Notes under the pieces: model-generated
What the model saw: only the letters and a program-made list of their open reading frames with translations
Told to the model about the DNA's origin: nothing
Database searches by the model: none
Translations under genes and position numbers: made by a program
In this document: positions 34,239-64,000 of the stretch, one piece after another
How the letters are laid out: the number at the start of each line of letters is the position of its first letter
Position numbering within the stretch: the stretch's first letter is position 1
Source of the DNA: Dictyostelium discoideum
Taxonomy: Eukaryota
Assembly (NCBI GenBank): GCA_000004695.1
Contig: CM000151.3
Span: 800,001 to 864,000, forward strand
Length of the DNA stretch: 64,000 nt
Direction of reading: 5' to 3'

Positions 34239-34277
<39 letters not shown>

Positions 34278-34355
34278 AATTAATTTAATTTTTACAGTTT
34301 ATTGAATTATTTTTAGTATTTGTTTTAATCTTTTAATTTAAATAATTTTACAGTT

Positions 34356-34685
34356 TTAATGGCAACCACAGTTTGGACCACTTAATAAACCACCAACAAC
34401 ACCATTGACAGTACCAACAATAATACCAGTTCCGACAAGTACACCACCTACGAGATTACCAACAGTACCAATTAATGGACTACCACCACCGCAGCCACCA
34501 CATTGTATTGAATTTGATGATTGTAATGATGAGTTTGATAATGATGAAAAATTATTTGATTTTGAAATTGATTTAACATTACCAATTCATGAGATTGAGG
34601 CTATTTAAAAATAATATAAAATAATTAATTTTAATATTATTTAATGTATATATATATATATATAAAACATACCTAAGATTGTCAT
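34356..34685 (-). pseudogene. HssA/B-like copy B. It has a premature in-frame TGA in codon 9 and a 12-nt in-frame deletion. Exon 1 is 34673..34685; exon 2 is 34356..34600.
   Basis: Exon 1 ATGACAATCTTAG|GTATGT is intact. Exon 2 begins CCTCAATCTCATGAATTGG, which in phase 1 reads A S I S stop. The plus strand has attCatgag where the other copies have attGatgag. Exon 2 also lacks the GTTGGAACTGTC segment. Confidence 0.6.
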
Positions 34686-34837
34686 TTTTAATTTTGTTAA
34701 TTGGAAATTAATTTTTTGATTTAATGATTATAAAATAAAAAAAAAAAAAACCTTTTATATCAAATTTTTTTAAACAAAAATTATTTATTTTTATTTGTTT
34801 TTAATTTATCTTACAAAAAATAAAAATAATAATTAAC

Positions 34838-35037
34838 TATCAATTAAGAAATAATGTGTTAATGGGGGTAATTATTGTGTGTTAATTAATCAACCGAATC
34901 CACCAAGGTTTTGATATGTATAAACTATTAAGTTAATACTTCATATAAATTTTTTTTTTTAAAATTTATATTGTTTCAGTTTAATTGTTCAAACACACAA
35001 TTAACCCCTCATTAACACATTATTTCCTAATTGATAG
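34838..35037. repeat. ~200-bp hairpin element with ~47-bp imperfect terminal inverted repeats (CTATCAATTARGAAATAATGTGTTARTGGGGGTAA...TTAACCCCWCATTAACACATTATTTCCTAATTGATAG). Copy 1, at the axis of hssl pair B/C.
   Basis: The left and right arms are reverse complements at ~90% identity. A ~110-bp spacer is itself partly palindromic. Further copies lie at 36840..37040, 40248..40446 and 42011..42208. A solo right-arm fragment lies at 52781..52806. Confidence 0.7.
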
Positions 35038-35389
35038 TAAATTTAAAGTATTTTTATTTATTTTTAAAGAATTTTTATTTATTCTACTCACACATCATAT
35101 TAAAATTTTTTTTTTTTTTTTTTTTTATTGTGTGGTATAATTTAATATATCTATTATACAAGAAAATAGTTTTTTGAAAATGAGATCTTTTGTGATCTAA
35201 ACAGTTAAATTTCTGAAAAAAAAGAATTTAATTATAATAATAAATTATTTGTTTTTTTTAAATTGATTTTTTTTTTTTTTAAATTTTTTTTTTTTCAAAA
35301 GTTCAAAATAAAAGTATAAATTCTAATTTTATTTCAATCATTATTTCATTAAATTAAACAATCAAAAAAATTTTAAATAAATTAATAAA

Positions 35390-35739
35390 ATGACACTCTT
35401 AGGTAAGTAATTAAATAATTAATTATAGTTTATTAAAAAATAATTTTATTAATTACTTATTTTTTAATATTAAAAAACTTAGCTTCAATCTCATCAATTG
35501 GTAATGTTAAATCAATTTCAAAATCAAATAATTTTTCATCATTATCAAACTCGTCATTACAATCATCAAACTCAATACAATGTGGTGGCTGCGGTGGTGG
35601 TAGTCCATTAATTGGTACTGTTGGTAATCTCGTCGGTGGTGTACTTGTCGGAACTGGTATTATTGTTGGTACTGTCATTGGAACTGTCAATGGTGTTGTT
35701 GGTGGTTTATTAAATGGACCAAACTGTGGATGTCATTAG
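35390..35739 (+). CDS. HssA/B-like copy C. Exons 35390..35402 and 35483..35739. 89 aa.
   Basis: ATGACACTCTTAG|GTAAGT with an acceptor aaaaaacttag. The product is [89 protein letters not shown]. The listed minus-strand ORF 35457..35690 is its antisense. Confidence 0.75.
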
Positions 35740-35934
35740 AACTGTAAAATTATTTAAATTATAATATTTTGTAATCAAAAAAGTTTTTTTATAATAAATA
35801 ACTTTGTATTAATAAAAAATTAAATCCAAAAAAGACTTAATGTTTCATTTTTTATTTTTTTATAATTTTTTTATTTTATTTTTACAATATTGTAAATTAC
35901 AAAAAGAGATTGATTATTTATACTTTTTTAAATT

Positions 35935-36190
35935 AATTACACTGACTTTCAACAGTTCTAGCATTTAGAATTAAAATATCAATTTGATATTACTTATAAA
36001 ATTTAATTAACCAATCTTTTAATTTACTTTGTCAGTAATATCAATCGATTCTACTTGAACACCAATATCCAAACATTCTTTTTTACTTCTTCTAATATTT
36101 CAATTTCCTTCCAGTCAAACCAAACCTCTTCCAGGATGACGCACCTGTGATAACTATTGCTTTTGGTGTCGGAAAATTTGTTTTCTTTTT
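35935..36190 (-). pseudogene. Decayed fragment of SDR exon 1 (remnant of a third SDR copy).
   Basis: The plus strand is alignable to 38650..38960 of SDR copy 1 (actgactttcaacagttc...cacctgtgataactattgcttttggtgtcggaaaatttgttttc). It has many substitutions and indels and no intact ORF. Confidence 0.6.
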
Positions 36191-36348
36191 TTATAATTTA
36201 AAAAACTTAATATTGTATAAAATAAAATATAAACAAATGAATTCAAAAATAATTTTTTTATTTTTAAATAATGAATTTAATTTTTACAGTTTATTGAATT
36301 ATTTTTAGTTTTTGTTTTATATCTATTAATTTAAATAATTTTACAGTT

Positions 36349-36688
36349 TTAATGGCAACCACAGTTTGGACCACTTAATAAACCACCAACAACACCATTG
36401 ACAGTTCCAACGACAGTACCAAGAATAATACCAGTTCCGACAAGTACACCACCTACGAGATTACCAACAGTACCAATTAATGGACTACCCCCACCGCAGC
36501 CACATTGAATTGAATTTGATGATTGTAATGACGAGTTTGATAATGATGAAAAATTATTTGATTTTGAAATTGATTTAACATTACCAATTGATGAGATTGA
36601 AGCTATTTAAAAATAATATAAAATAATTAATTTTTAATTATTTTGTGTATATATTTTTAGATTTTAAAGACATACCTAAGATTGTCAT
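36349..36688 (-). CDS. HssA/B-like copy D. Exon 1 is 36676..36688; exon 2 is 36349..36602. 88 aa (one-codon deletion).
   Basis: MTIL-G|GTATGT, acceptor ttttaaatag. Exon 2 encodes [84 protein letters not shown]. Confidence 0.75.
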
Positions 36689-36839
36689 TTTTTTAATATT
36701 GCTAATTGTAAATTTTAATAGTTTGATTTAATGATTTTTTTTTAAAATAAAAAAACCTTTTATATCAAATTTTTTAAAACAATAATTATTTTTTTTTATT
36801 TATTTTTAATTTATCTTACAAAATAATAATAATAATTAA

Positions 36840-37040
36840 CTATCAATTAGGAAATAATGTGTTAGTGGGGGTAAATATTGTGTGTTAATTAATCAACCGA
36901 ATCTACCGAAGTTTTTATATGTATAAACTATTGTGTTAGTTCTTCATATAAATTTTTTTTTTTAAAATTTATATTGTTTCAGTTTAATTGTTCAAACACA
37001 CAATTAACCCCACATTAACACATTATTTCCTATTTGATAG
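36840..37040. repeat. Hairpin IR element, copy 2 (axis of hssl pair D/E).
   Basis: Same arms as copy 1. Confidence 0.7.
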
Positions 37041-37374
37041 TAAATTTATATTATTATTATTTTTTTTTTTTTTTAGAAGTTTTATTTATTAACACATATT
37101 AATAATTTTTTTTTTTTTTGTGTGGTTTAATTTAGTATATCAATTATACAAGAAAATAATTTTTTGAAAATGAGATTTTTTGTGATTTAAACAGTTAAAT
37201 ATCTGAAAAAAAAAAGAATTTAATTATAAAAATAAATTATTTGTTTTTTTTTTAAATTAATTATATTTTTTAATTTTTTTTTTATTGAAAATAAAAGTAT
37301 AAATTCTAATTTTATTTTCAATCATTATTTCATTAAATCAAACAATCAAATAAACTTTAAAATAAATTAATAAA

Positions 37375-37721
37375 ATGACACTCTTAGGTAAATAATTAAA
37401 ATAAATTGTAGTTTATTAAAAAGTAATTTTATTAATTTATTTTATTTTATAAATTTAAAAAATTTAGCTTCAATCTCATCAATTGGTAATGTTAAATCAA
37501 TTTCAAAATCAAATAATTTTTCATCATTATCAAACTCATCATTACAATCATCAAACTCAATACAATGTGGTGGCTGCGGTGGTAGTCCATTAATTGGTAC
37601 TGTTGGTAATCTCGTAGGTGGTGTACTTGTCGGAACTGGTATTATTGTTGGTACTGTCGTTGGAACTGTCAATGGTGTTGTTGGTGGTTTATTAAGTGGT
37701 CCAAACTGTGGATGCCATTAA
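37375..37721 (+). CDS. HssA/B-like copy E. Exons 37375..37387 and 37468..37721. 88 aa.
   Basis: ATGACACTCTTAG|GTAAAT, acceptor aaaaaatttag. Same protein family. The minus-strand ORF 37442..37672 is the antisense artefact. Confidence 0.75.
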
Positions 37722-37871
37722 ATTTATTAAAATCGATAATGTTTTTTTATAATAAATAAATTTGTATAAATAAAAAATGAATTTCAAAAAAGACTTAACA
37801 TGTTCATTTTTATTATAACTATTTTTTTTTTTTTTTTTTACAATATTATAAATTACAAAAAAAAAGATTGA

Positions 37872-39063
37872 TTATTTATTATGAGTCTTAATTTTTTGAG
37901 AATTTAAATTTTTAACTGATGAGGAGGGACAATTTTCTCTTTTTGATTCATTTGTAGAATATCGAGAGTGATGAGAATAATGAGTTACTGGTTTCCTATA
38001 GTCTGGATATTTTGCAAGAGAATTTATAATAAAATTAGTGGCATCTCTTAAAGTTGGTGGAATTGTGGCAAAGAAATGAGATATACAATAAACTAAAGGT
38101 GGGCATGAAATTATTGCATCATTTCTACTAATACCATCTACAATGTATTTTGAAGCTTTGTCAGTTGTTATAGGTAGTAACATTGGTATATCTTTATAAT
38201 CCAAAGAATCAACTAATGGAGTATAAACAAAACCTGGTATTATTACTGAAACGCCAACACCTCTTGATGCTAAACCATTTCTAAGTATTAACCCAAATGA
38301 TTTTAGGTAACCTTTACTTGATGAATATCCTGCCATTGTATAATCAAAATATGGTGTAATACTTGACATCAAAACCAATTGACCAGATCCTCTTGATTCA
38401 AAGATTGGTACCATTGGTAAAACTGTATTCAAGGTTCCAATTACCTATAATAAATAATTTATTAATTAGTTTTAAAAGAATATCATTACTTTTTATATTT
38501 TTAAAATTATTTAAGATATTACATTTGTGTTTGTAACTGTTAATATTCTTTCAGTAAAATCTAATTCTTTTGGTAACATTGCTGGAATTTTTTTTTTAAA
38601 TATAAATAAATATATTAAGAAAACCAATTTTTTTTTTTTTAAAAAAGTAATTATACTGACTTTCAACAGTTCCAGCATTTGCAATTAAAATATCAATTTT
38701 ATATTTATTATCAAATTTAATTAACCAATCATATAATTTTTCTTTGTCAGTGACATCAATTGATTCAATTTCTACTTGAACACCAAGATCCAAACATTCT
38801 TTTTGAATTTCTTCTAATTTTTCAATGTTTCTTCCAGTTAAACCTAAAACCAAAGAATTATTGGTTTTTCTTTTTGCATATTCAAGTGCTATTCCTCTAC
38901 CAATACCAGATGATGCACCCGTGATAACTATTGCTTTTGGTGTTGGGAAATTTGTTTTCTTTTTTTTATAATTTAAAAAACCTAATATAGGATAAAATAT
39001 TAAAAGAATCATTGAACCAATTATATTGGTCAACAATAAAGATATATCAGTTAGCACTGCCAT
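37872..39063 (-). CDS. Membrane-anchored short-chain dehydrogenase/reductase (SDR), copy 1. Exons 38661..39063, 38523..38581, 37872..38444.
   Basis: N-terminal TM helix (LTDISLLLTNIIGSMILLIFYPILGFL). Rossmann motif ITGASSGIGRGIALEYAKRK. NAG motif ILIANAGTVE. Catalytic YSSSK in exon 3. The splice sites are GTCAGT (38655-38660) with ttccag (38582-38583), and GTAATA (38517-38522) with ttattatag (38445-38446). Phases 1/0 are consistent, and the same sites occur in copy 2. Confidence 0.8.
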
Positions 39064-39130
39064 TCTTATTATTAATTTTTTTTGAAAAATTTAAATTAAA
39101 AAAAAATTTAAATTAATAAAAAAAATTTAA

Positions 39131-39168
<38 letters not shown>

Positions 39169-39334
39169 TTAAAGTGTTAAAATTCTAAACCGTTTAAAAG
39201 AATGTTTAATTAATTAATTCAAAAACACCAAGAATAAAAATTGATTTACAATATTAAATTTTCATTTTTTAACAAATTTTTTTTATATTTTTTAAAAAAA
39301 ATACAAAACAGGAAGGTTGTCAAAACAGATCTAT

Positions 39335-39382
<48 letters not shown>

Positions 39383-39645
39383 TTTAATATAAAATTAAAT
39401 AATTAAATAAATCATTTTAAATCTAATTTTAATTTTAAAAACATTTTACAAAGATTAAAATCAGATTTAAAATAACTTTTTCTTTAGTTAATCAAATAAT
39501 AATTAAATAATTTCAAAAGTTTATATTTATACTTTTTTTTTTTATTCATTTTCATATTCACTTTTAATAAGATTATCATAAAAAATTCTGAATTGTTTTA
39601 ATGAAATAAATTTATTAAATATTTTAAAAAAATGAATTCAAAATT

Positions 39646-39680
<35 letters not shown>

Positions 39681-39760
39681 AATAATGAATTTAATTTTTA
39701 CAGTTTATTGAATTATTTTTAGTATTTTTTTATATCTATTAATATAAATAATTTTCAGTT

Positions 39761-40107
39761 CTAATGACATCCACAGTTTGGACCACTTAATAAACCACCA
39801 ACAACACCATTGACAGTTCCAACAACAGTACCAAGAATAATACCAGTTCCAACAAGTACTCCACCGACGAGATTACCTACGGTACCAATTAATGGACTAC
39901 CACCACCGCAGCCACATTGAATTGAATTTGATGATTGTAATGACGAGTTTGATAATGATGAAAAATTATTTGATTTTGAAATTGATTTAACATTACCAAT
40001 TGTTGAGATTGAAGCTAAGTTTTTAATATTAAAAAATAAATAATTAATAAAATTTTTTTTTAATAAACTACTATTAATTATTTTAATTACTTACCTAAGA
40101 GTGTCAT
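39761..40107 (-). CDS. HssA/B-like copy F. Exon 1 is 40095..40107; exon 2 is 39761..40014. It is plus-slot type (MTLL-G|GTAAGT) sitting in a minus-strand slot.
   Basis: The revcomp of cttacctaagagtgtcat gives ATGACACTCTTAG GTAAGT. Exon 2 encodes [84 protein letters not shown], then a TAG stop. Confidence 0.75.
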
Positions 40108-40247
40108 TTTATTAATTTATTTAGAGTATTTTGATTTAATGATTTATTAAAAAAAAAAAAAAAAAAAAAATCCTTTTATATCAAAATTTTTTATAACAAT
40201 AATAACAACGTTTATTTGCTTTTAATTTATCTTAATAATAGTAATTA

Positions 40248-40446
40248 ACTATCAATTAGGAAATAATGTGTTGGTGGGGGTAAATATTGTGTGTTAATTA
40301 ATCAACCGAATCTACCGAAGTTTTTATATGTATAAACTATCGTGTTAGTACTTCATATAAACTTTTTTTTTAAATTTATATGTTTCAGTTTAATTGTTCA
40401 AACACACAATTAACCCCACAATAACATATTATTTCCTAATTGATAG
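40248..40446. repeat. Hairpin IR element, copy 3 (axis of hssl pair F/G).
   Basis: Same arms as copy 1. Confidence 0.7.
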
Positions 40447-40760
40447 TAAATTTATATTATTATTATTATTTTTTAAAAAAAGTTTTATTTATTCTTCTCA
40501 CACACATTAAAAATAATAATATTTTTTTTTTTGTGAGGTTTAATTTAATATATCGATTATATAAGAAAATAATATTTTGAAAATAAGATTTTTTGTGATT
40601 TAAACAGTTAAATATCTGAAAAAAAGAATTTAATTATAATAATTAATTATTTGTTTTTTTTAATTTTTTTATTTTTTTTATTCAAAATAAAAGTATAAAT
40701 TCTAATTTTATTTTCAATCATTAAATTAAACAATCAAATAAACTCTAAATAAATTAATAA

Positions 40761-41112
40761 AATGACACTCTTAGGTAAGTAATTAAAATAATTAATAGTA
40801 GTTGATTAAAAAATAATTTTATTAATTATTTATTTTTTAATATTAAAAAACTTAGCTTCAATCTCAACAATTGGTAATGTTAAATCAATTTCAAAATCAA
40901 ATAATTTTTCATCATTATCAAACTCATCATTACAATCATCAAATTCAATTCAATGCGGTGGCTGCGGTGGTGGTAATTCATTAATTGGTACTGTTGGAGG
41001 TCTTGTTGGTGGTGTACTTGTTGGAACTGGTATTATTGTTGGTACTGTCATTGGAACTGTTAATGGTGTTGTTGGTGGTTTATTAAGTGGTCCAAGCTGT
41101 GGATGCCATTAA
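40761..41112 (+). CDS. HssA/B-like copy G. Exons 40761..40773 and 40856..41112.
   Basis: MTLL-G|GTAAGT with an acceptor aaaaaacttag. Exon 2 encodes [11 protein letters not shown]...[53 protein letters not shown]. Confidence 0.75.
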
Positions 41113-41274
41113 AATAATGTTTTTTAGAATAAATAAATTTGTATATATAAAAAATGAAATTCAAAAAATACCTAACACCTTTCTTTTTTTTTTTTTATTA
41201 TTTGTTTTTAATTTTTTTATATAATTACTAAAATTGAATTTTTTTTTTTTTTTTTTAAAAATTAATTACACTGA

Positions 41275-49460: not shown

Positions 49461-49539
49461 TTAAAATCAATTTAATTAAAATTAATTTAATTATACATAT
49501 AATAAAATTTAATTTTTTTTTTTTTTTTTAAACAAAGAT

Positions 49540-50921
49540 TTAATTGTCAAGAAATATAATGAGTGCGAGGTAGGCTGGATTATAAAAAACCGTCACTTTC
49601 ATCTTTTATTGTATATACTTAAAAAAGATATTGAAAAAAGGGACCAATTCACAGAAAAATTATTTTATAAATTTTTAGAAGGTAATAGTGAATTAGATTT
49701 ACTTAAAGAAATGTTTTAACTATTCCCACAGTTTTTACCATCAACTCCAATGGCCGAAAATATTGTTCAAGTTTAAAACCAACTAAAAACCCATCATTCT
49801 TCTTTATTATCTTCAGAATTTTCTTCTTCTTTATTATCTTCTTCATCCGATACTTCATCTGATACTTCTTTTTCTTCACTCGATTCTTTTTCAAATGAAG
49901 AATTTACTGAAAAATCTTATGATTTTGCTTTTTAATCTCCATATGATTCATTTGTTAAATATTTTATAATATCTAAACTAGAATATAAAAGTAACAAATA
50001 GAGAATGCATGTTATGCTAATAATTGTAAAATTGTGGGATATTATCTTGGTTTAAATCAACTCGATAGATACTAAGGGAGTGAAATTAATATTTATAAAC
50101 ATTGTGATTTTATTGCTCATTGAGGGGTAAAGATTTTCAACTATTCAAATTTATTTTTGATAAAAATCCAAGACTAATTCGTGAATGTGTATCCTCTGAA
50201 CAATTTATAAAATTATTGGTAAGAACCGGTGATGTCCAATTCGTTATTTACTTTTGTAAAATTCAAGGACCTTCTTTTAAACCTCCACTATTACAACCAC
50301 ATATGATCGCAAAATCATCATTAAGCATAGTTATATTCCTATGCTCACTTTTAAGAGTAAAGGGCTCTGCCTATTATAAATCATTATTATATGCTATTGA
50401 TAAAAGGAAGAATAAAAGCGAGAGATTGCTACTTTTAAGAGTCCTTATTGAAGAATCTATGAAAAGGTTGATGATGGTTTAGTAGTGCAAGATGTAGTTT
50501 ACTCATTCTGCAGAATTGGTGATTTAGATTGCATAATATACCTCCGTGATATTTTCTCAACTACCACGAAAACATAGTTATAAGTTTATGGTTTCATGTT
50601 TCGCCTTGGATGTACCAATATCTTCAAAAAAAATTTCATGTAACTGATTGGATTTTAGAAAATACAAATGTATGTTGTTCAAATCTTGGTTTACAGTACC
50701 TTTGCATAAATATCACCAATCTTAAGCATATACTCGATAGAATATTAATAAAATTTGTACCCAAAGGTGTAATCTCAAGTAATATGCTTTTGAATGCAAT
50801 GCATTCAACAAATAAAATTGCTCATGATAAAGAAAACTTAGATTATCTAGCTTCTTTTTTACCAAATCATTTAATCCCTACTTTTCCAATTGAAACCTCA
50901 ATAGAGGATTTTGACAATTAA
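49540..50921 (+). pseudogene. Decayed 5'-truncated tandem duplicate of the gene at 51193..52713.
   Basis: Alignable to the downstream gene from codon ~28 (KDLIVKKYNECEVGWIIKNRHFHLLLY...) to the C-terminus (...PNHLIPTFPIETSIEDFDN). It is interrupted by multiple stops and frameshifts. Only fragmentary ORFs survive (50120..50482, 50610..50921). The 3' flank is also duplicated (50991..51090 matches 52831..52920). Confidence 0.75.
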
Positions 50922-51073
50922 TAGATTTTGACTATTAGTAATAATAAAAATAATAATAAAAATTAAAAACTAATAAAAAAATAATAAATTTAATTACTTT
51001 AAACGAAATAAAAAAGTTATTTATATATTTCCTATATGAAATGATACTAATAATATATTTGTTGTTTTTTTCT

Positions 51074-51108
<35 letters not shown>

Positions 51109-51192
51109 TCTTGCAACAATTTGTTTTTTTTTTTTTTCAAATTTATTTTTTATTTTTTTTTTTTCCTCAATCTTAAAAAAACAATCATCAAA

Positions 51193-52713
51193 ATGGATAA
51201 TTTATTTAGATTAGTATTTAAAAATGTAATTATTAGAAATCAAATATTTAGGTTTGTTAGAATTTTAAACAAAGATTTAATTGTGAAGAAATATAATCAG
51301 TGTAATATGGGCTGGATTATAAAAAATGGTCACTTTCATCTTTTATTGTATAAACTTAAAAAACATATTAAAAGGGACCAATTCTCAGAAGAATTATTTT
51401 ATAGATTTTTACAAGGTAATAGTGAATTACATTTACTTAAAGATATGTTTAAAATATTCCCACAGTTTTTACCGTCAACTCCAATTGCTGAAAATATATT
51501 AATTGAACATTGTTCAAGTTTAAAACCAACTAAAAACCTATCACCCTCTTCTTCTTCATATTCTCCAAACTTTTCTTCTACTTCAGTATCTTCTTCTTCA
51601 TCTGATTCTTCTTTTTCTTCAATTGATTCTTCTTCTTCTTCTTCTTCTTCTTCCAATCAAGAATTTTGTGAACAATCATATGATTATGATTCCTCTTCTC
51701 CATATGATTCTAGTTTAGATATTATAAAATATTTAACAAATGAATTAAATATAAAAGTAACAAATAAAGCAATAAATAATGCATGTGCAGCTAATAATTG
51801 TAAAATTGTGGGATATTATCTTGGTTTAAATCAACTCGATAGATACAAAGGGAATGAAATTGATATTTATGATAATTGTAATATTGGTACTTTATTTTGC
51901 TCATTGAGGGGTAAAGATTTTCAATTATTTAAATTTATTTTTGAAAATAATCCAAATTTAACTTCTCAATGTATAAGCTATGACAAATTTATAAAATTAA
52001 TGGTAGCAACAGGTGATATCCAATTCATTATTCACTTTGGTAGAGTTCAAGGACCTTCTTATAAACCTCCACAATTACAACCATATATGATCGCAAAATC
52101 ATCATTAAGTATAATTAAATACCTATGCTCATTTTTAAAAATAAATGACCCTATGTATTATAAATCATTATTATATGCTATTGAAAAAAGGAAAAATCAA
52201 AGCGAGAGATTCCTACTTTTAAAATTCCTTATTGAAGAGTTTAGAATCTATGAAAAGGTTGAAGGTAGTACAGTGGTGCAAGAAGTAGTTTACTCATTCT
52301 GCGGTATCGGTGATTTAGATTGCATAATATACCTCCGTGATTTTTACTTAACTCTACCACAAAATCATAGTTTTAAGTTTTTAATTCCACGTTCCGCCTT
52401 GGATGTATCAATATCTTCAAAAAATTTTCATGTAACTAATTGGATTTTAGAAAATACAAATGTATGTTGTTCAATTAATGGTTTAAGGTACCTTTGCAAA
52501 AATATGGCCAATCTTAAGCATATACTTGATAGAATATTAATAAAATTTGTGCCCATTCGTGCAATCTCAAGTAAAATGCTTTTGGATGCAATGCATTCAA
52601 CAAATAGAATTGCTCATGATAAAGAAAATTTTGATTATCTAGCTTCTTTTTTACCAAATCATTTAATCCCTACTTTTCCAATTGAAACCTCAATAGAGGA
52701 TTATGACTATTAA
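51193..52713 (+). CDS. Dictyostelium-specific protein of unknown function, with a Ser-rich low-complexity segment. The intact member of a tandem pair, ~506 aa.
   Basis: Continuous ORF from ATGGATAATTTATTTAGA (MDNLFRLVFKNVIIRNQIFRFVRILNKDLIVKKYNQCNMGWIIKNGHFHLLLYKLKK...). I recognised no domain. The ORF-track start at 51106 lies in poly-T and is rejected. Confidence 0.55.
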   Translation: MDNLFRLVFKNVIIRNQIFRFVRILNKDLIVKKYNQCNMGWIIKNGHFHLLLYKLKKHIKRDQFSEELFYRFLQGNSELHLLKDMFKIFPQFLPSTPIAENILIEHCSSLKPTKNLSPSSSSYSPNFSSTSVSSSSSDSSFSSIDSSSSSSSSSNQEFCEQSYDYDSSSPYDSSLDIIKYLTNELNIKVTNKAINNACAANNCKIVGYYLGLNQLDRYKGNEIDIYDNCNIGTLFCSLRGKDFQLFKFIFENNPNLTSQCISYDKFIKLMVATGDIQFIIHFGRVQGPSYKPPQLQPYMIAKSSLSIIKYLCSFLKINDPMYYKSLLYAIEKRKNQSERFLLLKFLIEEFRIYEKVEGSTVVQEVVYSFCGIGDLDCIIYLRDFYLTLPQNHSFKFLIPRSALDVSISSKNFHVTNWILENTNVCCSINGLRYLCKNMANLKHILDRILIKFVPIRAISSKMLLDAMHSTNRIAHDKENFDYLASFLPNHLIPTFPIETSIEDYDY

Positions 52714-52961
52714 TAATAATAAAAATAATATTAATAAATAATAATAATGCATCTATCCAAAAAACATAAAATTTACCCCCACTAACACATTATTTCCTAT
52801 TGATATTTTTTGTAATAAAAATTAAAATAATAAATTTAATTACTTTAAATGAAATAAAAAATTTATTTATATTTAGTTCCTATATGAAATGATACTAATA
52901 GATTTGTTGTTTTTTTTTCTTTTTAAATTTAATATTTTATAAACTTTTTTTTTTTTTTTTT

Positions 52962-53053: not shown

Positions 53054-54011
53054 TTAATGATTTGAAGAGCAACAAGAAAGTAAAGTTTTTAATTGAGTTT
53101 GAATGACTTCATTAGTTTGTTGTAAAAGTGAATTTCTATTTGCTAATAATTCCTTACTATTTTTTAATCTTGATGTATCCTCCATTAGTTGAGATAAAGA
53201 GGTAGTTGCTTTTGCACCAAGATTTTCCAACTCTTGGAGTTCTTTTCTCAATTTTTTGTTTTCATTAAATAATACCTCTCTTTCTCTTTCCATTCTTTCA
53301 AGTTTTGTAACTAAAGAACGCAAACTAAATGATAATGATACAAGTGATGAATTTGTAGTTGATCCATTTGAATAGTCATCATAATTATTTCCGGAATCAA
53401 ATGAATTTGAATTTCTTTTTCTTTTTCCATTTTCATTTTGTTCGTTATAATCTTGTTGATTATTATAAAATTGTTGTGTTTGTTGATGATGTTGTTGTTG
53501 TTGTTGTTGCTGTTGTTGTTGCTGTTGTGGTGGTGGTTGATGTTGTTGTTGCTGTTGTTGTTGCTGTTGTTGTTGTTGTTGTTGAGTGTGTTGGTATTGA
53601 TGATGTTGTTGGTATTGTTGTTGTTGTTGTTGTTGTTGCTGTTGCTGTTGTTGGTGTTGTTGTTGTTGAGGTCCATTTAAATGAGAGGGGAAAATTGAAT
53701 GTTGTTGAGATGATGTTGGTGACTGTTGCTGTTGTTGATGATGTTGTTGTTGCTGCTGTTGTCCACCATTTATCATGCTATTATACTGTAAGAATATTTT
53801 ATCATTTCCTTTATTATACAAATGTTGTTGAGTTTGAATTTGTGTTGGTTGATTTGATTTTTGTTTATCCTCCATTGTCTGAGTTCTTTTTCTACCTCTG
53901 TTAGCAGCTGTTGTCGTTGTAGTGGTTGTTGTTGTCGTTTGCTGTTGATTTGAATTTGATGGTGAATAGGAATTATTATTATTACCATTACTATTATTAT
54001 TATTATTACTA

Positions 54012-54081
<70 letters not shown>

Positions 54082-55611
54082 TACTATTATTTGTATTATT
54101 ATTGGTATTATTGGTATTATTATTATTATTGTTATTGATATTGTTACTGTTAATGTTATTATTGCTATTGTTATTATTATTTGGTGCAATTTTTGGTAAA
54201 ACTACAATAGGTTGAGAAGTTGAATTATTATTATTATTATTTGATTGTGATATTTGTTGAAGTTTATTTGATAGATATTGATGATCAGTTTCAATATTTC
54301 TTGAAGAGATTTTATTTCCATCTCTAGCTTTATCGATCATAACCAAAGTATTTTCATTTTCTTCATCATTTTCATCGTCATAATTCATTTGAGAATTGTT
54401 TTGGTGATGTTGATTTTGGATATATTGTTGTTGTTGTTGTTGTGCTTGTTGTTGATATTGTTGTGCTTGTTGTTGTAATTGTTGTTGTTGATACAATGAT
54501 CTTCCATTATTACTCACTTTAATATTTCTATTTACAAGAGACTCGACTGAAGATAAAATTTCAATATTATTTCTACTATTATTATTATTGTTGTTGTTGT
54601 TGTAACTATTATTATTGGTATTAAACTCTCTATCTCTATCCCTATCTCTTTCTCTATCTCTATCTCTTTCTCTTTCTCTATCTCTATCTCTATCTCTTTC
54701 TCTTTCTCTTTCTCTTTCTCTTTCTCTTTCTCTTTCTCTTTCTCTTTCTCTTTCTCTTTCTCTTTCTCTTTCTCTTTCTCTTTCTCTTTCTCTATCCCTA
54801 TCTCTTTCTTTTGATTGGTTGGGCGAATTATTGTAATTATTATTATTGTTGTTGTTGTTATTATTATTATTATTATTTTTATTATTATTATTTTGTACTG
54901 ACACAGTTGTTGTATTAGGTGTAGAATGTGATGATGATGGACTATTCAATTGATTTAATATTTTAATTGTTGAATCATTTTCAAAATTATTAGTTTGTTC
55001 GGAGGATGGGGAATCTTCTCTATTTGTGTTGTTGTAGTTGTTATTATTTGATTTTTTGGATGATTGTTCATAATCATCGTGGAGGTCTTCAATTAGGTTT
55101 CTATTGAGTTTATTGGAACCATTAACACCTTTATTTGATCTTTCGTCATCATTATCATCAATCTCCATTTGTTCTCTCTCTTTTTCATTTTTTTCTTTTT
55201 CTTCATCATCACTATTATTTTCATTTTTATTATTATTATTATTATTGTTATTGTTATTATTATTATTATTATTATTGTTGTTGTTGTTGTTGTTGTTGTT
55301 GTTATTAATAATTTCGCTACTATCATCGTCATCAAAAGCAATTTCCTTTTCTTTATCCTTTTCTATGTCTCTTTCTCTTTCTCTTTCTTTTTCTTTTTCT
55401 TCTTTTTCACTTTCTCTTTCTTTTTCTTTTTCTTTTTCTTTTTCTTTTTCTTTTTCTTTTTCTTTTTCTTTTTCTTTTTCTCTTTCATTCTCTTGAGGAG
55501 GTTGTGGAGAATTTGGATCTTTTTGTGAATCATTTTCACCACTTATTTTTGAATCAATTTCTTGGGCATCTTCATTTTTGTTATTAATTGAAGCTGTAAC
55601 AGTTTCGATTT

Positions 55612-55615
<4 letters not shown>
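53054..55615 (-). CDS. Highly repetitive low-complexity nuclear-type protein. It has poly-N, poly-Q, (ER)n, (EK)n and a poly-T(hr) run, plus a basic patch and a C-terminal coiled-coil/leucine-zipper-like region. 853 aa.
   Basis: Single long ORF. The basic segments are RGRKRTQTMEDKQK and NGKRKRNS. The C-terminus is LVTKLERMEREREVLFNENKKLRKELQELENLGAKATTSLSQLMEDTSRLKNSKELLANRNSLLQQTNEVIQTQLKTL. The (ER)n comes from a (TCTCTT/GAGA) DNA tract at 54615..54836. Overlapping plus-strand ORFs (poly-L, poly-V, poly-Y, SL repeats) are artefacts. Confidence 0.6.
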
Positions 55616-58648: not shown

Positions 58649-59025
58649 ATGTCATCTAAAAATAATGGTAACAATAATACAGCTTCTTTACTTTTAAAGA
58701 AACAACTCTTAGGTAAGATATATATAATTAAAATATAGAATCAAAATAAACCTCTTCTTCATTATCCTTCTTCTTCTTCTTCTTCTTTCTTCTTCTTCTT
58801 CTTCTTATTATTATTATTCTTCTCTATACTAACATAGTAATATTATATATATGTAGAATTAAATAAAAATCCAATTGATGGTTTTTCAGCAGGTTTAGTT
58901 GACGAATCTAATATTTATGAATGGCAAATTATGATTATGGGCCCACCAGATACATTATACGAAGGTGGTATATTTAATGCAACTTTATCATTTACACCAG
59001 AATACCCAGTAAAGTATGTTATCGT

Positions 59026-59064
<39 letters not shown>

Positions 59065-59548
59065 CAATAGGTAATAGATATTAACAAATTTCAATTGTTT
59101 TTATAATCAATAATCAATAATAATCAATAATAATCAATAATAATCAATAATAATCAATAATAATCAATAATAATCAATAATAATCAATAATAATCAATAA
59201 TAATCAATAAACAATGATCAATAATCAATAATCAATTTATTAAATAATTTTAGACCGCCAAAGATGAAATTTATTACAGAAATGTGGCACCCAAATGTTT
59301 ATAAAGAGGGTGAAGTTTGTATTTCTATTTTACACGAAGGTGAGGACGCATATGGTTATGAGAAATCAAATGAAAGATGGTCACCAGTTCACACTGTCGA
59401 ATCAATTCTTGTATCAGTAATTTCAATGTTATCATCACCAAACGACGAGTCACCAGCAAATATCGATGCTGCTAAAGAGTGGCGTAACTCTAGAGAAACT
59501 TTTAATAAAAAGGTCCAAAGACTTGTCAGAAAGACTCAAGATAGCTAA
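58649..59548 (+). CDS. Ubiquitin-conjugating enzyme E2 (UBC7/UBE2G-like). Exons 58649..58712, 58857..59013, 59254..59548.
   Basis: MSSKNNGNNNTASLLLKKQLL, then ELNKNPIDGFSAGLVDESNIYEWQIMIMGPPDTLYEGGIFNATLSFTPEYPVK, then PPKMKFITEMWHPNVYKEGEVCISILHEGEDAYGYEKSNERWSPVHTVESILVSVISMLSSPNDESPANIDAAKEWR. These give the HPN motif, the active-site Cys in VCISIL, and the acidic insertion typical of UBC7/UBE2G. The donors are GTAAGA and GTATGT. The acceptors are atgtag and aattttag. The phases are consistent. Confidence 0.85.
59107..59218. repeat. Tandem 10-mer minisatellite (AATAATCAAT) x ~11 inside intron 2 of the E2 gene.
   Basis: Direct reading. It lies between the GTATGT donor (59014) and the acceptor at 59253. 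Confidence 0.9.
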
Positions 59549-59987
59549 AAAAATAAAAATAATAAAAAAAAAAAAAATAACATAAACAACGTATCAAGAA
59601 ATATATATTCATTTTTTGAAAAAAATAAAAAATAAAATATAAAATACACCAAAACAATTTTTTATTTTTTATTTTATTAATTATTTATTTTATTTTTTAA
59701 ATTGGAATTATTAAAATTGATTTATTTTAGTTACCTATACTATTGGAGTATTATTGTTGATAAATTATCATATACATCAGAGCATTCAGTATTACCTTTT
59801 ACAGAATAATATCTAAAACACTTTTTATGATCACCACTTTGAAAAAATAAAAATATTTCCAAATAAAAATAAAATCTTTTCCAAATTTATTAAGTCTTTT
59901 TTTAAAAATTAGATTTATTTTAAATAAAACAGAACATGAAACAAAAATAAAATTCTAATTTGTTTGATTTGATGACATTATATTATT

Positions 59988-60065: not shown

Positions 60066-60512
60066 TTAATTATAGGTATATGTAACTAAATAGTATGGAT
60101 ATGATTGTTGATTATCATAAACGATATAAATATCAGAGCCCAGTGGATTACCTTTTACAGAATCATATCTTACATTTTTATTTGTAGAATCTTTTAGGGG
60201 TGGTAATTTGAGTGAACTGTCTGGCTCTGAGGTAATTGAATCACCAATTAAAACTGTGGCAATAAAGATTTGATTTAATTTTTGTGGAGTTTTATAGCTA
60301 TATCTATGTGAATATGATGCATTATATGCAAAGTAACTACCATTTCCCCACATACAACTCTCTTTAGAAAATCTCCAATCAAAGCAATTTTTAGAATTAT
60401 AAATTGATTCTGGTTGTGTTGCACTGGTACCATGGAATAAATATAATTCACCCTAGAAATATAAATATTTTTTTAGAATTGGAATATTAGTTTATTTTTT
60501 TATATTTATTAC

Positions 60513-60547
<35 letters not shown>

Positions 60548-61103
60548 AACATAGACACTTACACTTTTACCATTATTATGAGCTTCAATTTTATTTTTTT
60601 TATAATAATAATCTTCATAGGAACTTCTATTTTGAACGAATTCAACTTTATTGATAATTACACCTGGTAATGTTTCCGACATTCTTGTACGAATTTCTAA
60701 CCATTCTTTACCACCTTTTTCAATTTCTACTAAACAACACTCTTTCTTATGATCCCATCTATTTGGATAAATGATTTTATTATTATTTTTAAATTCTAAA
60801 ATTTGAGATTTAATATCTAGAACTTGTTCTTTTAGACCCTCTAAATTAACATTTGATGTTTTTGTATCATAATTAATTTCAACACCATATGATAAACATT
60901 TATCTTTTATAAAACTTAATGAATCAATTGGAATTTGAATATTTATAATATTTTCTGAATATTTATACTTTATAACTAAATCTTCTAATTCCTTTACAAA
61001 TGATCTTATATCATTTATATTACCTTTAACTATAATTTGATATTTATTTTTACTTTTAACAACAACACCATCATCATCATCATCGTCATCATTATTATTA
61101 TTA

Positions 61104-61180
<77 letters not shown>

Positions 61181-64000
61181 TGGAATATTATTATTTGGAT
61201 TATTATTATTTGGATTATTTTTATTATTATTATTATTGGTTTTTGGATTTAATAATTTTAATAGTTGGCCAAAAAAGCCATTTCCGTCATTATTATTATT
61301 ATTATTATTATTTATAGTGGTTGGAGTTGTGTTTTTATTGTTTTTATTGTTATTATTAATATTATTATTTATAATATTCCTTTTAACTAATCTTTTGGTG
61401 TATTGTAATTTATCATTTAATTGATACCACGAAGATGGATTATTATGATCTATAAAGTAAACAGTATAGGTCGAACCATTCTTTTTTTGATTTAGATCAC
61501 CAATGATTGAAACCAATCGAAGACGAGAATTATATGCTTTTTCAATTTGAATTGATTGGTCGTAATCATATGGAATATCTTTACCATCATTTTCTCTCCA
61601 TGTCCATTCATAATTTAAACTCTTTGGTTTAATAGGTTCATAATTTGTATTTAAAATTGATTTATTTGGTTGAGTGGTGGTGTTTTTATTAATGCTGCTA
61701 TTTTTATTGTGAAATAAAGTACCATTATCTGAGAATTTAATCAAACTATTTTCAAATATATTTGCAGTACTTTGATTTAAATCAACAAAATTAACTTCAT
61801 TTAATGTTGTTTCATTTGTTAATAAAAATTCAATTGCACTTTTAATTATAATTGGTACTGCTTCTTTTGGATCATAACCGAAAATACCTGTACTAATTGC
61901 TGGAATTGAAATTGATTGGCAATTTAATGCTGTTGCACTTCTTAAAGAGCTATGAATTGACATATGTAAAATTCTAGCTTTATTTGGATTATCATTTTTT
62001 GGACCAACTGTATTAATTACGAATATATTACCCATTTTAAATTTACTTCCATAAACAGAACAACCTGTACCTATTGGACCGTTTTTTTCATAATATGATT
62101 CACAAAATTCTTTAAATGTAGCGCCGGCAGCTTCTTGAATTGAAAATGCAGCACCACCTAAATTCTTTAATTTTTCATTTGCAGGGTTAACGATTGCATG
62201 CGTTTTTTGTTTTGTTATATCACCTTTTATAATTCTAATAATTTTACCATTTGATAAATTTAATGAAATAATTGTTTCATTTTCAACTTTTAATTCAACA
62301 AGTGTAAAAGTTTCTTTTTGTAATTTACCAACTTTTTTTAAATCAAATAAAATGTCATGTCTAATTTTATCAATTGTAATTGCCCTTGTTTCTATACTAT
62401 TTTCATATGAATATTTTTCTTTTAATAATTCAAGATAAATAATCTTTATATTTTCTGGGTCACCACTAATTTTAACATTTAATTCTTCTTTATTATAATA
62501 ATATCTAATACCAATTTGTTGAGATTTTATTTCTAATGATTCAATTAAATTTTTTAACTATAAAATAATTAAAAGAGTTAATATTTATTTTTGTATATAT
62601 TTTATATATTTATTTATTTTATATATATTGATATATTTACCTTTAAAGATGATAATTTACTTAATTGAATAGTTTTGGTTTCACTTGGAGTTGTTGATAT
62701 CAATGAATCAATATCTGCTGTAACTAATTTAAATTTCTCTATACATGGTACACAAATTATTATTTCTTCACTATTTATTAAAATTGTTGCATTGTATTGT
62801 TTTTCAATTTCTTTAATTTTCATTAAATTTGAAGTGGCAACAATAAGGATTTCTTTTAAATTTGGTGAATTATATTTTTGAAAATGAATTGAATTTTTTG
62901 AAGAAATTATTGATTTTTCAATTTTTTCAACTTGATTTTTATTTCCATAAACTAAAACATTCTTGAAATCAATTTGTGTATCATCACTCTTTGATGGTGA
63001 GATTTTAATTGAAACTAATTCATCATTATTATTATTACATTGTTCTTGTAATGATTTTAAAATATTTGATAAAACTTTTGATTTTATAAATAGATCATCA
63101 CCAGATAAATCAATTGTTTTTTCATAAAATCCATTTAATGCTTCATCAATAATTTTCTTTATTTGAATATAAACAGTCTCTAATGATTTTATTGAAATTT
63201 TATTTGTACCTATTATTCTAGTTGAATTTGTAAATTTTTGATTAATTAATTTTAAAATTGATTTTTGTTCTAAAAATAGAATTTCAATTTCTTTTTCAAC
63301 TTCATAAACATGTTCAACCTATTTATTATTAATAATTATTAAAATCAACTTTGGTTTTTTTTTTATTTTTTTTATTTTTAGTAATTAAAGCTAATACTTA
63401 CTTTACTTTTATTTAGTAGATTCATTACAATTGCTGAAACAATTTCTAAATTTTCTTTTGAATTTGCTTCCATTTTAATTCCACCATTTTGATAATGCAT
63501 TACATAATCTTTGGTATTTAATGAACTCCAATCATATCTTCCTCTCATTTGTTGCTCATTCATTGGAACAAACTTTTTTAAATTTTTGAAATCTTCAATG
63601 AAATTCTTAACCAAAATGACTTTTGATGATTCACCAGTAATTAAAAAAAATATTTGATTATTATTTTTATTATTTGATTTTTGTTTTTGATTTTGATTAT
63701 TATGTTGTTGTTGCTGATGTTGATTGGTATTATTGTTTTCATCAATTTGAAAATGTGTAAGGTAAGTTTTAATGGCTTTTGAATATTTATAAATTAAATT
63801 TTTATGAGTTTCAAAGAAAAGAGAATTAAATTTTACTCTTTCTCTTCTTAAATTACCAATTTGAAGTAAAATGGATTCTTGTGATTCACTTGATAATTGA
63901 CCTTCAACTTTAAAGGTACCATCTTTTTCAATAATTTTTGATGGTATAATTGATTGTTTCCATTGTCTTAATAAATGAATTTTAATATAAATATGGAATC
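60066..64000 (-). CDS. Macro-domain + WWE-domain + PARP catalytic-domain protein (mono-ADP-ribosyltransferase type). 5'-partial; the N-terminus lies beyond the window end. Exons >64000..63402, 62641..63318, 60563..62557, 60066..60452.
   Basis: Macro domain: IIRIIKGDITKQKTHAIVNPANEKLKNLGGAAFSIQEAAG...SISIPAISTGIFGYDPKEAV. WWE domain: YEWTWRENDGKDIPYDYDQSIQIEKAYNSRLRLVSIIGDLNQKKNGSTYTVYFIDHNNPSSWYQLNDKLQYTKRLVKR. PARP catalytic region: GELYLFHGT...CMWGNGSYFAYNASYSHRYS...IFIATVLIG. It is split by an intron containing (ACACATAC)n. The donors are GTAAGT at three sites and GTAAAT at one. The acceptors are aaatag, attttatag and atttctag. All junctions are phase 0. Confidence 0.8.

Follow-up and report, generated by a model that had tools for sequence, protein, structure and literature searches.

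We analysed a stretch of 64,000 nucleotides (nt) of Dictyostelium discoideum DNA (GenBank assembly GCA_000004695.1, contig CM000151.3, positions 800,001 to 864,000 of the forward strand), which is referred to below as the window. At the end of the window, on the minus strand, lies a gene whose product contains macro, WWE and PARP catalytic domains. A preliminary description of this DNA had recognized these three domains in a gene split over at least four exons and extending beyond the window.

Gene structure

Three-frame translation of the minus strand from 64000 to 59990 gave four long open segments in differing frames, which agrees with the exon number proposed before. The segments are separated by three introns of 83, 83 and 110 nt, all of the GT..AG type and all in phase 0, and the GC content of the introns is 0.07 to 0.23 versus 0.20 to 0.30 for the exons. 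The four exons comprise 3654 nt within the window and encode a spliced product of 1218 amino acids that is open at the window edge and ends at a TAA stop codon (60068-60066).

The visible part of exon 1 (63402..64000, minus strand as for all features of this gene; residues 1-199) has its coding frame from 63998 and runs uninterrupted to the window edge, as had been noted. Its first residues align with those of the Polysphondylium violaceum and Cavenderia orthologues (YIK..LL..W), and the exon is therefore coding right up to the edge; an ATG at 63963 was considered as the start codon and rejected, since its frame differs from that of the exon. The Q/N-rich segment reported for this exon is a low-complexity insert at 63657..63743 (residues 86-114). 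Intron 1 (63319..63401; 83 nt, GTAAGT..TAG, phase 0, GC 0.12) is followed by exon 2 (62641..63318, residues 200-425), and the orthologue alignment is unbroken across the junction. Intron 2 (62558..62640; 83 nt, GTAAAT..TAG, phase 0, GC 0.07) precedes the long exon 3 (60563..62557, residues 426-1090), which encodes the last of a series of KH-like modules, the macro and WWE domains, a poly-N/poly-D linker, a PARP14-type KH module and the beginning of the PARP domain. Intron 3 (60453..60562; 110 nt, GTAAGT..TAG, phase 0) interrupts the PARP domain, and the last exon (60066..60452, residues 1091-1218 and the stop codon) encodes the PARP catalytic core. The (ACACATAC)n tract previously assigned to one intron exists at intron 3 (60513-60564) but is not clean; Tandem Repeats Finder describes it as an imperfect period-6 tract, ACACAT x8.7, with 84% matches.

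Beyond the stop codon, at a distance of about 240 nt (59730-59828, minus strand), there is a degenerate copy of the 3′ end of the coding sequence (the last 100 nt or so), in which ...RYDSVKGN..SD.Y..YDN... can still be read. Its local alignment score is 104, compared with 52 +/- 6.5 (maximum 76) for shuffled sequences.

Evidence for a single intact gene

A contig of another assembly (JBTAPE010000001.1, GCA_054883475.1) carries a stretch, L001, that shares 99.85% identity with the window over 21.5 kb, and its annotation gives one gene with a product of 1604 amino acids and the same stop codon as the window gene. As 1218 residues are encoded within the window, about 386 residues are expected beyond it. 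The comparison with L001 reaches window position 62741, and the upstream part of the gene was examined only in a more divergent locus, L002. This is the locus of P0001, a 234-amino-acid protein of 'Dictyostelium cf. discoideum' (GCA_054859205.1) and the nearest named protein, with 88% identity to a 199-amino-acid PARP query. Because L002 shares its gene order with the window (PARP, UQ_con, Rrp15p, a gene for 862 amino acids and a gene for 507 amino acids), it is the orthologous locus and not a paralogue. P0001 was also considered as a recent PARP-only paralogue; this was rejected, as the gene caller had produced P0001 from the C-terminal part of the orthologue in L002.

In principle the exons could be divided among several genes, such as one for a macro-WWE protein and a short one for a stand-alone PARP. 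The gene caller for GCA_054859205.1 returned such a pair, with products of 1141 amino acids and the PARP-only P0001, and a short PARP-only Dictyostelium protein, DDB0304590, is known from the literature (PMC2964712). The split of the L002 product, however, coincides with indels that disrupt its reading frame, and the window itself argues for continuity. Canonical splice sites in phase 0 are found at every junction, intron 3 lies within the PARP domain, and residues 1030-1090 of exon 3 align to PARP12 and PARP15, with the PARP12 alignment continuous over the third junction. The P. violaceum orthologue (KAF2071317.1, 1588 amino acids) matches residues 4-818 and 931-1218 in the same order, with an identity of 36-41%; its alignment is gapless over the first two exon junctions and the protein is collinear across all three. 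Together with the single 1604-amino-acid product of the nearly identical assembly, these data make a division between genes, which the preliminary description had named as one outcome that would overturn it, very improbable, and the four exons are best read as one gene.

The orthologue in L002 (7640-9920) carries at least five frame-disrupting indels inside exons that are single in the window. One of them removes 5 bp from the WWE region, and others are 1-bp changes that do not fall in homopolymers. The flanking single-exon genes (862 and 507 amino acids) are intact. This may reflect lineage-specific decay or assembly error. The indels in the syntenic copy next to intact neighbours, together with the degenerate duplicate downstream of the stop codon, could be taken to mean that the window gene is itself a decaying pseudogene. 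To this we give almost no credence: its reading frame stays open through all four exons, in phase throughout 3654 nt of AT-rich DNA in which stops arise easily, every Pfam domain scores above its cut-off, and the near-identical assembly has an intact 1604-amino-acid model.

The PARP catalytic domain

The PARP catalytic domain (60075..60664, split by intron 3; residues 1057-1216) is found by Pfam PF00644 with 51.3 bits, compared with a cut-off of 26.7. The LFHGT and GSYFAYNASYS motifs on which an H-G-T type PARP assignment had been based are present. The closest solved catalytic domains are those of PARP12 (E 3e-26), PARP15 and PARP14, with E values ranging from 1e-21 to 3e-26. In the alignment with PARP12, and with the codons checked, the catalytic triad consists of H1097 in LFHGT (60432-60434), Y1130 in GSYFA (60333-60335) and I1198 in SDIYIVY (60129-60131), the last opposite the isoleucine of PARP12. 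The third residue is isoleucine or valine in five of the five orthologues that were read.

The preliminary description had proposed that the choice between H-Y-E and H-Y-I/L would separate poly- from mono-ADP-ribosyltransferase activity. Since the triad is H-Y-I, with a non-acidic third position, the domain falls on the mono side and is predicted to catalyse mono-ADP-ribosylation and not poly-ADP-ribosylation.

The loss of the glutamate of H-Y-E could also be read as the mark of a catalytically dead pseudo-PARP scaffold such as PARP9 or PARP13, acting only through its reader domains and the U-box described below. The frameshifts in the sibling-lineage orthologue, which suggest that the gene is dispensable, and a ratio of non-synonymous to synonymous substitution rates (dN/dS) of about 0.45 between the window and L002 would fit such a protein. 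The histidine and tyrosine are kept, however, the isoleucine or valine is shared by every orthologue read, and PARP10, PARP12, PARP14 and PARP15 are active with this motif (PMC1266365, PMC2964712). In addition, the catalytic domain ranks with the more strongly constrained parts of the gene (dN/dS 0.35, with 0.31 for the macro domain, versus 0.62 for the N-terminal region). A dead enzyme is thus unlikely, and a mono-ADP-ribosyltransferase is the preferred reading.

The macro and WWE domains

The macro domain (61847..62191, residues 548-662) is recognized by Pfam PF01661 with 79.5 bits (cut-off 22) and contains the GDIT...VNPANEKLKNLGGAAF...ISTGIFGYD motif by which it had been identified. Its structural extent is about residues 528-700 (61733-62251), and Asn552 of VNPAN is encoded at 62177-62179. 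Its best solved match is PARP14 macrodomain 1, with 63.4 bits; PARP14 macrodomain 2, a reader, reaches only 31.3 bits. The domain also aligns with MacroD-type hydrolases. Its conserved loops, VNPAN552-x6-GG and ISTGIFGY, have the counterparts VNASN..HYGG and ISSGVFGF in PARP14 macrodomain 1, so that N-x6-GG and G-[IV]-F-G are common to both.

By this resemblance, the domain appears to be of the macrodomain 1 (hydrolase-type) class. Within PARP14, macrodomain 1 is the hydrolase macrodomain (PMC10499325, PMC10470015), and because the window domain is closest to this hydrolytic one, it may be an eraser of ADP-ribose as well as a reader. The arrangement had been summarized as 'reader + reader + writer'. 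The domains of this summary are correct, but it is probably too simple if the macro domain is hydrolase-like (63 versus 31 bits) and perhaps an eraser. The suggested link to metazoan macro-PARPs holds up well, given that PARP14 macrodomain 1 is the closest match to the macro domain and that the catalytic domain is most like those of PARP12, PARP15 and PARP14.

The WWE domain (61379..61609, residues 742-818) lies between the macro and PARP domains. It scores 27.1 bits with Pfam PF02825 (cut-off 21.1) and is the weakest of the domain calls made from the single sequence. Residues W743, W745 and E747 (61592-61606) are present in the motif YEWTWREN, and the alignment shows conservation at its Y, Q and R positions. 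A profile built from six orthologues matches solved WWE domains only, namely those of DTX1 (6.5e-10), TRIP12 (3.5e-6) and PARP11 (7.5e-4), with further matches to Deltex, ZAP and RNF146, and the earlier WWE assignment is thereby corroborated. The domain is followed by the poly-N/poly-D linker (61070..61381, residues about 818-921), which is in frame and appears as (ATT)49 on the plus strand.

KH-fold modules

Pfam detects nothing significant in residues 1-545. An AlphaFold2 model of the N-terminal region, built from an alignment of three orthologous sequences (A1) and having a mean predicted local distance difference test (pLDDT) score of 74.4, contains five tandem modules (62396..63578, across introns 1 and 2; residues 141-479), each with the order beta-alpha-alpha-beta-beta-alpha. 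A single-sequence AlphaFold2 run on residues 115-529 reached a pLDDT of only 37.8. Comparison of the model with the PDB by Foldseek retrieved the five-KH protein GLD-3 (3n89, E 3e-4), PNO1, the KH domains of N4BP1 and secretin N-domains. With medium confidence, we take the N-terminal region to be built of KH-fold modules. A GXXG loop is found in none of the five, and they are thus KH-like, in the same way as many KH units of PARP14, PARP9 and DTX3L in published descriptions (PMC11080071, PMC13224862).

Another KH-like module lies directly N-terminal to the PARP domain (60779..61042, residues about 931-1018). It matches Pfam KH_PARP14_3 with 33.1 bits when the segment is searched alone (cut-off 28) and with 24.3 bits in the whole protein, and the same segment gives weaker matches to KH_PARP14_6 and KH_PARP14_8. 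The KH-fold modules of the window gene were missed by the earlier reading. In the 1218 residues encoded in the window, Pfam finds no RNA recognition motif (RRM).

A U-box in the orthologues

In L002, the coding sequence upstream of the part that corresponds to the window contains, in order, a methionine, a poly-N run, a U-box and a poly-Q run, after which comes the match to the first residues of the window exon. The earlier reading, confined to the window, had no view of this upstream region. The U-box scores 32.5 bits with PF04564 (cut-off 21.4). An N-terminal profile from L002, P. violaceum, Cavenderia fasciculata and Luapelamoeba hula matches the U-boxes of CHIP, UBE4A and Ufd2 with E values from 4.5e-8 to 8e-5, the value for CHIP being 4.5e-8. 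Pfam assigns U-box, RRM_1, Macro, WWE and PARP domains to the Cavenderia and Luapelamoeba orthologues. The N-terminus of the P. violaceum protein aligns with the U-boxes of these two orthologues, yet is not scored by Pfam, and the Heterostelium orthologue has Pfam matches to KH_1 and to PARP14-type KH models.

Correspondence with pARTg

The gene and its U-box/macro/WWE/PARP architecture are already known from literature of 2005 to 2016, so that the placing of the gene in the Dictyostelium PARP repertoire, recommended in the preliminary description, has been published. Otto et al. (2005) listed, among the pARTs of D. discoideum, one that has a macro (A1pp) domain, and gave the motif of Dd.pARTg as H-Y-I/L (PMC1266365). 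Citarelli et al. (2010) placed DDB0232928 in clade 3D and noted its macro domain and a U-box at the extreme N-terminus (PMC2964712); in the published trees, orthology of this clade 3D protein to animal PARP14 is only 'possible' (PMC2964712). Perina et al. (2014) found macro, RRM, WWE and PARP domains in amoebozoan clade 3 PARPs, with an extra N-terminal U-box in Dictyostelium species (PMC4245714). Finally, Gunn et al. (2016) drew pARTg with U-box, MACRO and PARP domains (Fig. 1A) as one of six D. discoideum macrodomain proteins (PMC5087659).

As pARTg is the sole Dictyostelium protein reported to have a macro domain together with a PARP domain, the pairing found in the window gene is telling. 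The two further agree in organism group, in the H-Y-I/L motif and in the WWE domain known from amoebozoan clade 3 PARPs, and probably also in the N-terminal U-box of pARTg, which is seen here in the syntenic orthologue and in the wider family. We see no difference in kind between them. We are therefore confident that three quarters of pARTg (DDB0232928), its C-terminal part, are encoded in the window, and that the whole is a PARP14-like U-box/KH/macro/WWE/PARP protein of about 1600 amino acids.

Several points weigh against this reading or against parts of it. The identity with DDB0232928 is one that we infer from the unique architecture and the organism. The evidence for the U-box comes from a sibling species and from more distant orthologues, and not from the window or from exactly the same genome. 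For the KH folds the basis is an AlphaFold2 model from a shallow alignment of three sequences, and a profile of the N-terminal region produced only chance matches among PDB sequences (Cys-loop channels, E >= 0.06). In the macro domain, asparagine replaces the histidine of the KH-x-GG loop of PARP14 macrodomain 1 and SARS-CoV-2 Mac1, and alanine stands in place of the aspartate of MacroD enzymes; because both the Mac1-type histidine and the MacroD aspartate are missing, the domain may only bind its ligand. Some PARPs with H-Y-I/V triads, or close relatives of these, are inactive (PARP13, PARP9). Lastly, the WWE domain of PARP14 itself failed to bind poly(ADP-ribose) (PMC13224862).

The literature searched contains sequence analyses of pARTg and no experiment on the protein, and recent papers on PARP14 and on DTX3L-PARP9 make no mention of Dictyostelium. 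To the published descriptions, which do not mention KH-fold modules or a resemblance to macrodomain 1, the present analysis adds the prediction of mono-ADP-ribosyltransferase activity from H-Y-I, the probable macrodomain 1 class of the macro domain and the KH-like N-terminal modules. As a discovery this matters little; it is a reminder of an experimentally unstudied protein in the genetically tractable Dictyostelium.

Neighbouring genes and other loci

Tail-to-tail with the macro-PARP gene, on the plus strand at 58649-59548, is a gene for a ubiquitin-conjugating enzyme (E2) of the UBE2G1 type (171 amino acids, E 4.5e-75 to human UBE2G1), with exons at 58649-58711, 58858-59009 and 59254-59548. 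Its second intron contains (AATAATCAAT)x12 at 59109-59232. The adjacency of the two genes is kept in the sibling Dictyostelium locus and absent in P. violaceum (L003). On account of this absence, the E2 is probably not a functional partner of the PARP protein by linkage.

Two other regions of the window, 34260-41217 and 49526-52748, contain duplicated sequence: tandem repeats of about 2 kb, 86-90% identical, surround short-chain dehydrogenase genes, and two adjacent paralogous genes of about 500 amino acids (49526-50957 and 51263-52748) have 83.6% DNA identity. Runs of poly-N, poly-Q, (EK)n and (ER/DR)n make up most of a single-exon open reading frame of 853 amino acids (53054-55615, minus strand). 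The annotation of L001 has an 853-amino-acid gene at the matching position, but for the sequence in the window there is no exact entry on record; the difference fits repeat-length polymorphism between strains.

Outside the window, the best-scoring representative match was P0041, a protein of 1154 amino acids from an ENA contig of 69,951 bp. It has five tandem PARP catalytic domains and neither a macro nor a WWE domain.

Proposed function and comparison with known systems

From its N- to its C-terminus, the full protein would consist of a U-box, a run of KH folds, one macro domain, a WWE domain, a poly-N linker, one KH-like module and the PARP domain, and from these parts we infer its enzymatic activities, ligands and biological role. 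The H-Y-I domain would transfer single ADP-ribose units from NAD+ to substrates and to the protein itself. The macro domain would bind mono-ADP-ribose and probably remove this mark, thereby limiting or editing it, and the WWE domain would read a ligand containing ADP-ribose. The KH-like modules, being without GXXG, could serve as scaffolds for protein-protein or weak RNA binding, and the N-terminal U-box would recruit E2~ubiquitin. In combination, these domains would couple ADP-ribosylation to ubiquitylation in one polypeptide. Such a chain would join activities that are now being worked out for PARP14 and DTX3L-PARP9 in the crosstalk between mono-ADP-ribosylation and ubiquitin.

A more speculative extension, which we consider rather doubtful, is that the vertebrate PARP14/PARP9-DTX3L module has a single-chain counterpart in the amoebozoan U-box-KH-macro-WWE-PARP protein, which would write, read and erase mono-ADP-ribose and ubiquitinate the same targets. 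It might then help amoebae to defend themselves against intracellular bacteria or viruses, and the apparent frameshift decay in the sibling lineage could represent the fast turnover for which immune genes are known.

Among known proteins, PARP14 (ARTD8/BAL2) offers a close parallel in layout. In it, too, KH-type modules precede the macro region, and a WWE domain and, at the C-terminus, a mono-ADP-ribosyltransferase domain with a non-acidic third triad residue follow, and both the hydrolase macrodomain 1 and the Pfam KH models of PARP14 match the window gene. PARP14 differs in having three macro domains and one or more N-terminal RRMs, whereas the window gene has a single macro domain and its visible part contains no RRM; the Cavenderia and Luapelamoeba orthologues, unlike that part, do carry RRMs. 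The window gene has an extra KH-like module between the WWE and PARP domains, where in PARP14 the KH-like module lies before the WWE domain, and a long poly-N linker without equivalent in PARP14. The built-in U-box of its family is also absent from PARP14.

In vertebrates, the coupling of ADP-ribosylation and ubiquitylation is divided between PARP14/PARP9 and DTX3L. The DTX3L-PARP9 pair resembles pARTg in bringing together an E3 ubiquitin ligase, KH-like modules, a macro domain of the macrodomain 1 type and a PARP fold, and it links ubiquitylation to ADP-ribosylation (PMC13224862, PMC11080071), as pARTg would. DTX3L-PARP9 is a complex, however, whereas pARTg would have all of these modules in one polypeptide. 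The presumed E3 of pARTg is a U-box and not RING-DTC, so that the DTC-dependent ubiquitylation of ADP-ribose is not to be assumed for it. Furthermore, the triad of PARP9 is Q-Y-T and inactive, whereas the PARP domain in the window retains both the histidine and the tyrosine. A third comparison is with PARP12, PARP11 and PARP7, the WWE-PARPs of clade 3E, which share the H-Y-I triad and a WWE domain placed before the catalytic domain, and PARP12 is the best catalytic match. In contrast to these proteins, the window gene lacks CCCH zinc fingers and has a macro domain and, as its orthologues suggest, a U-box.

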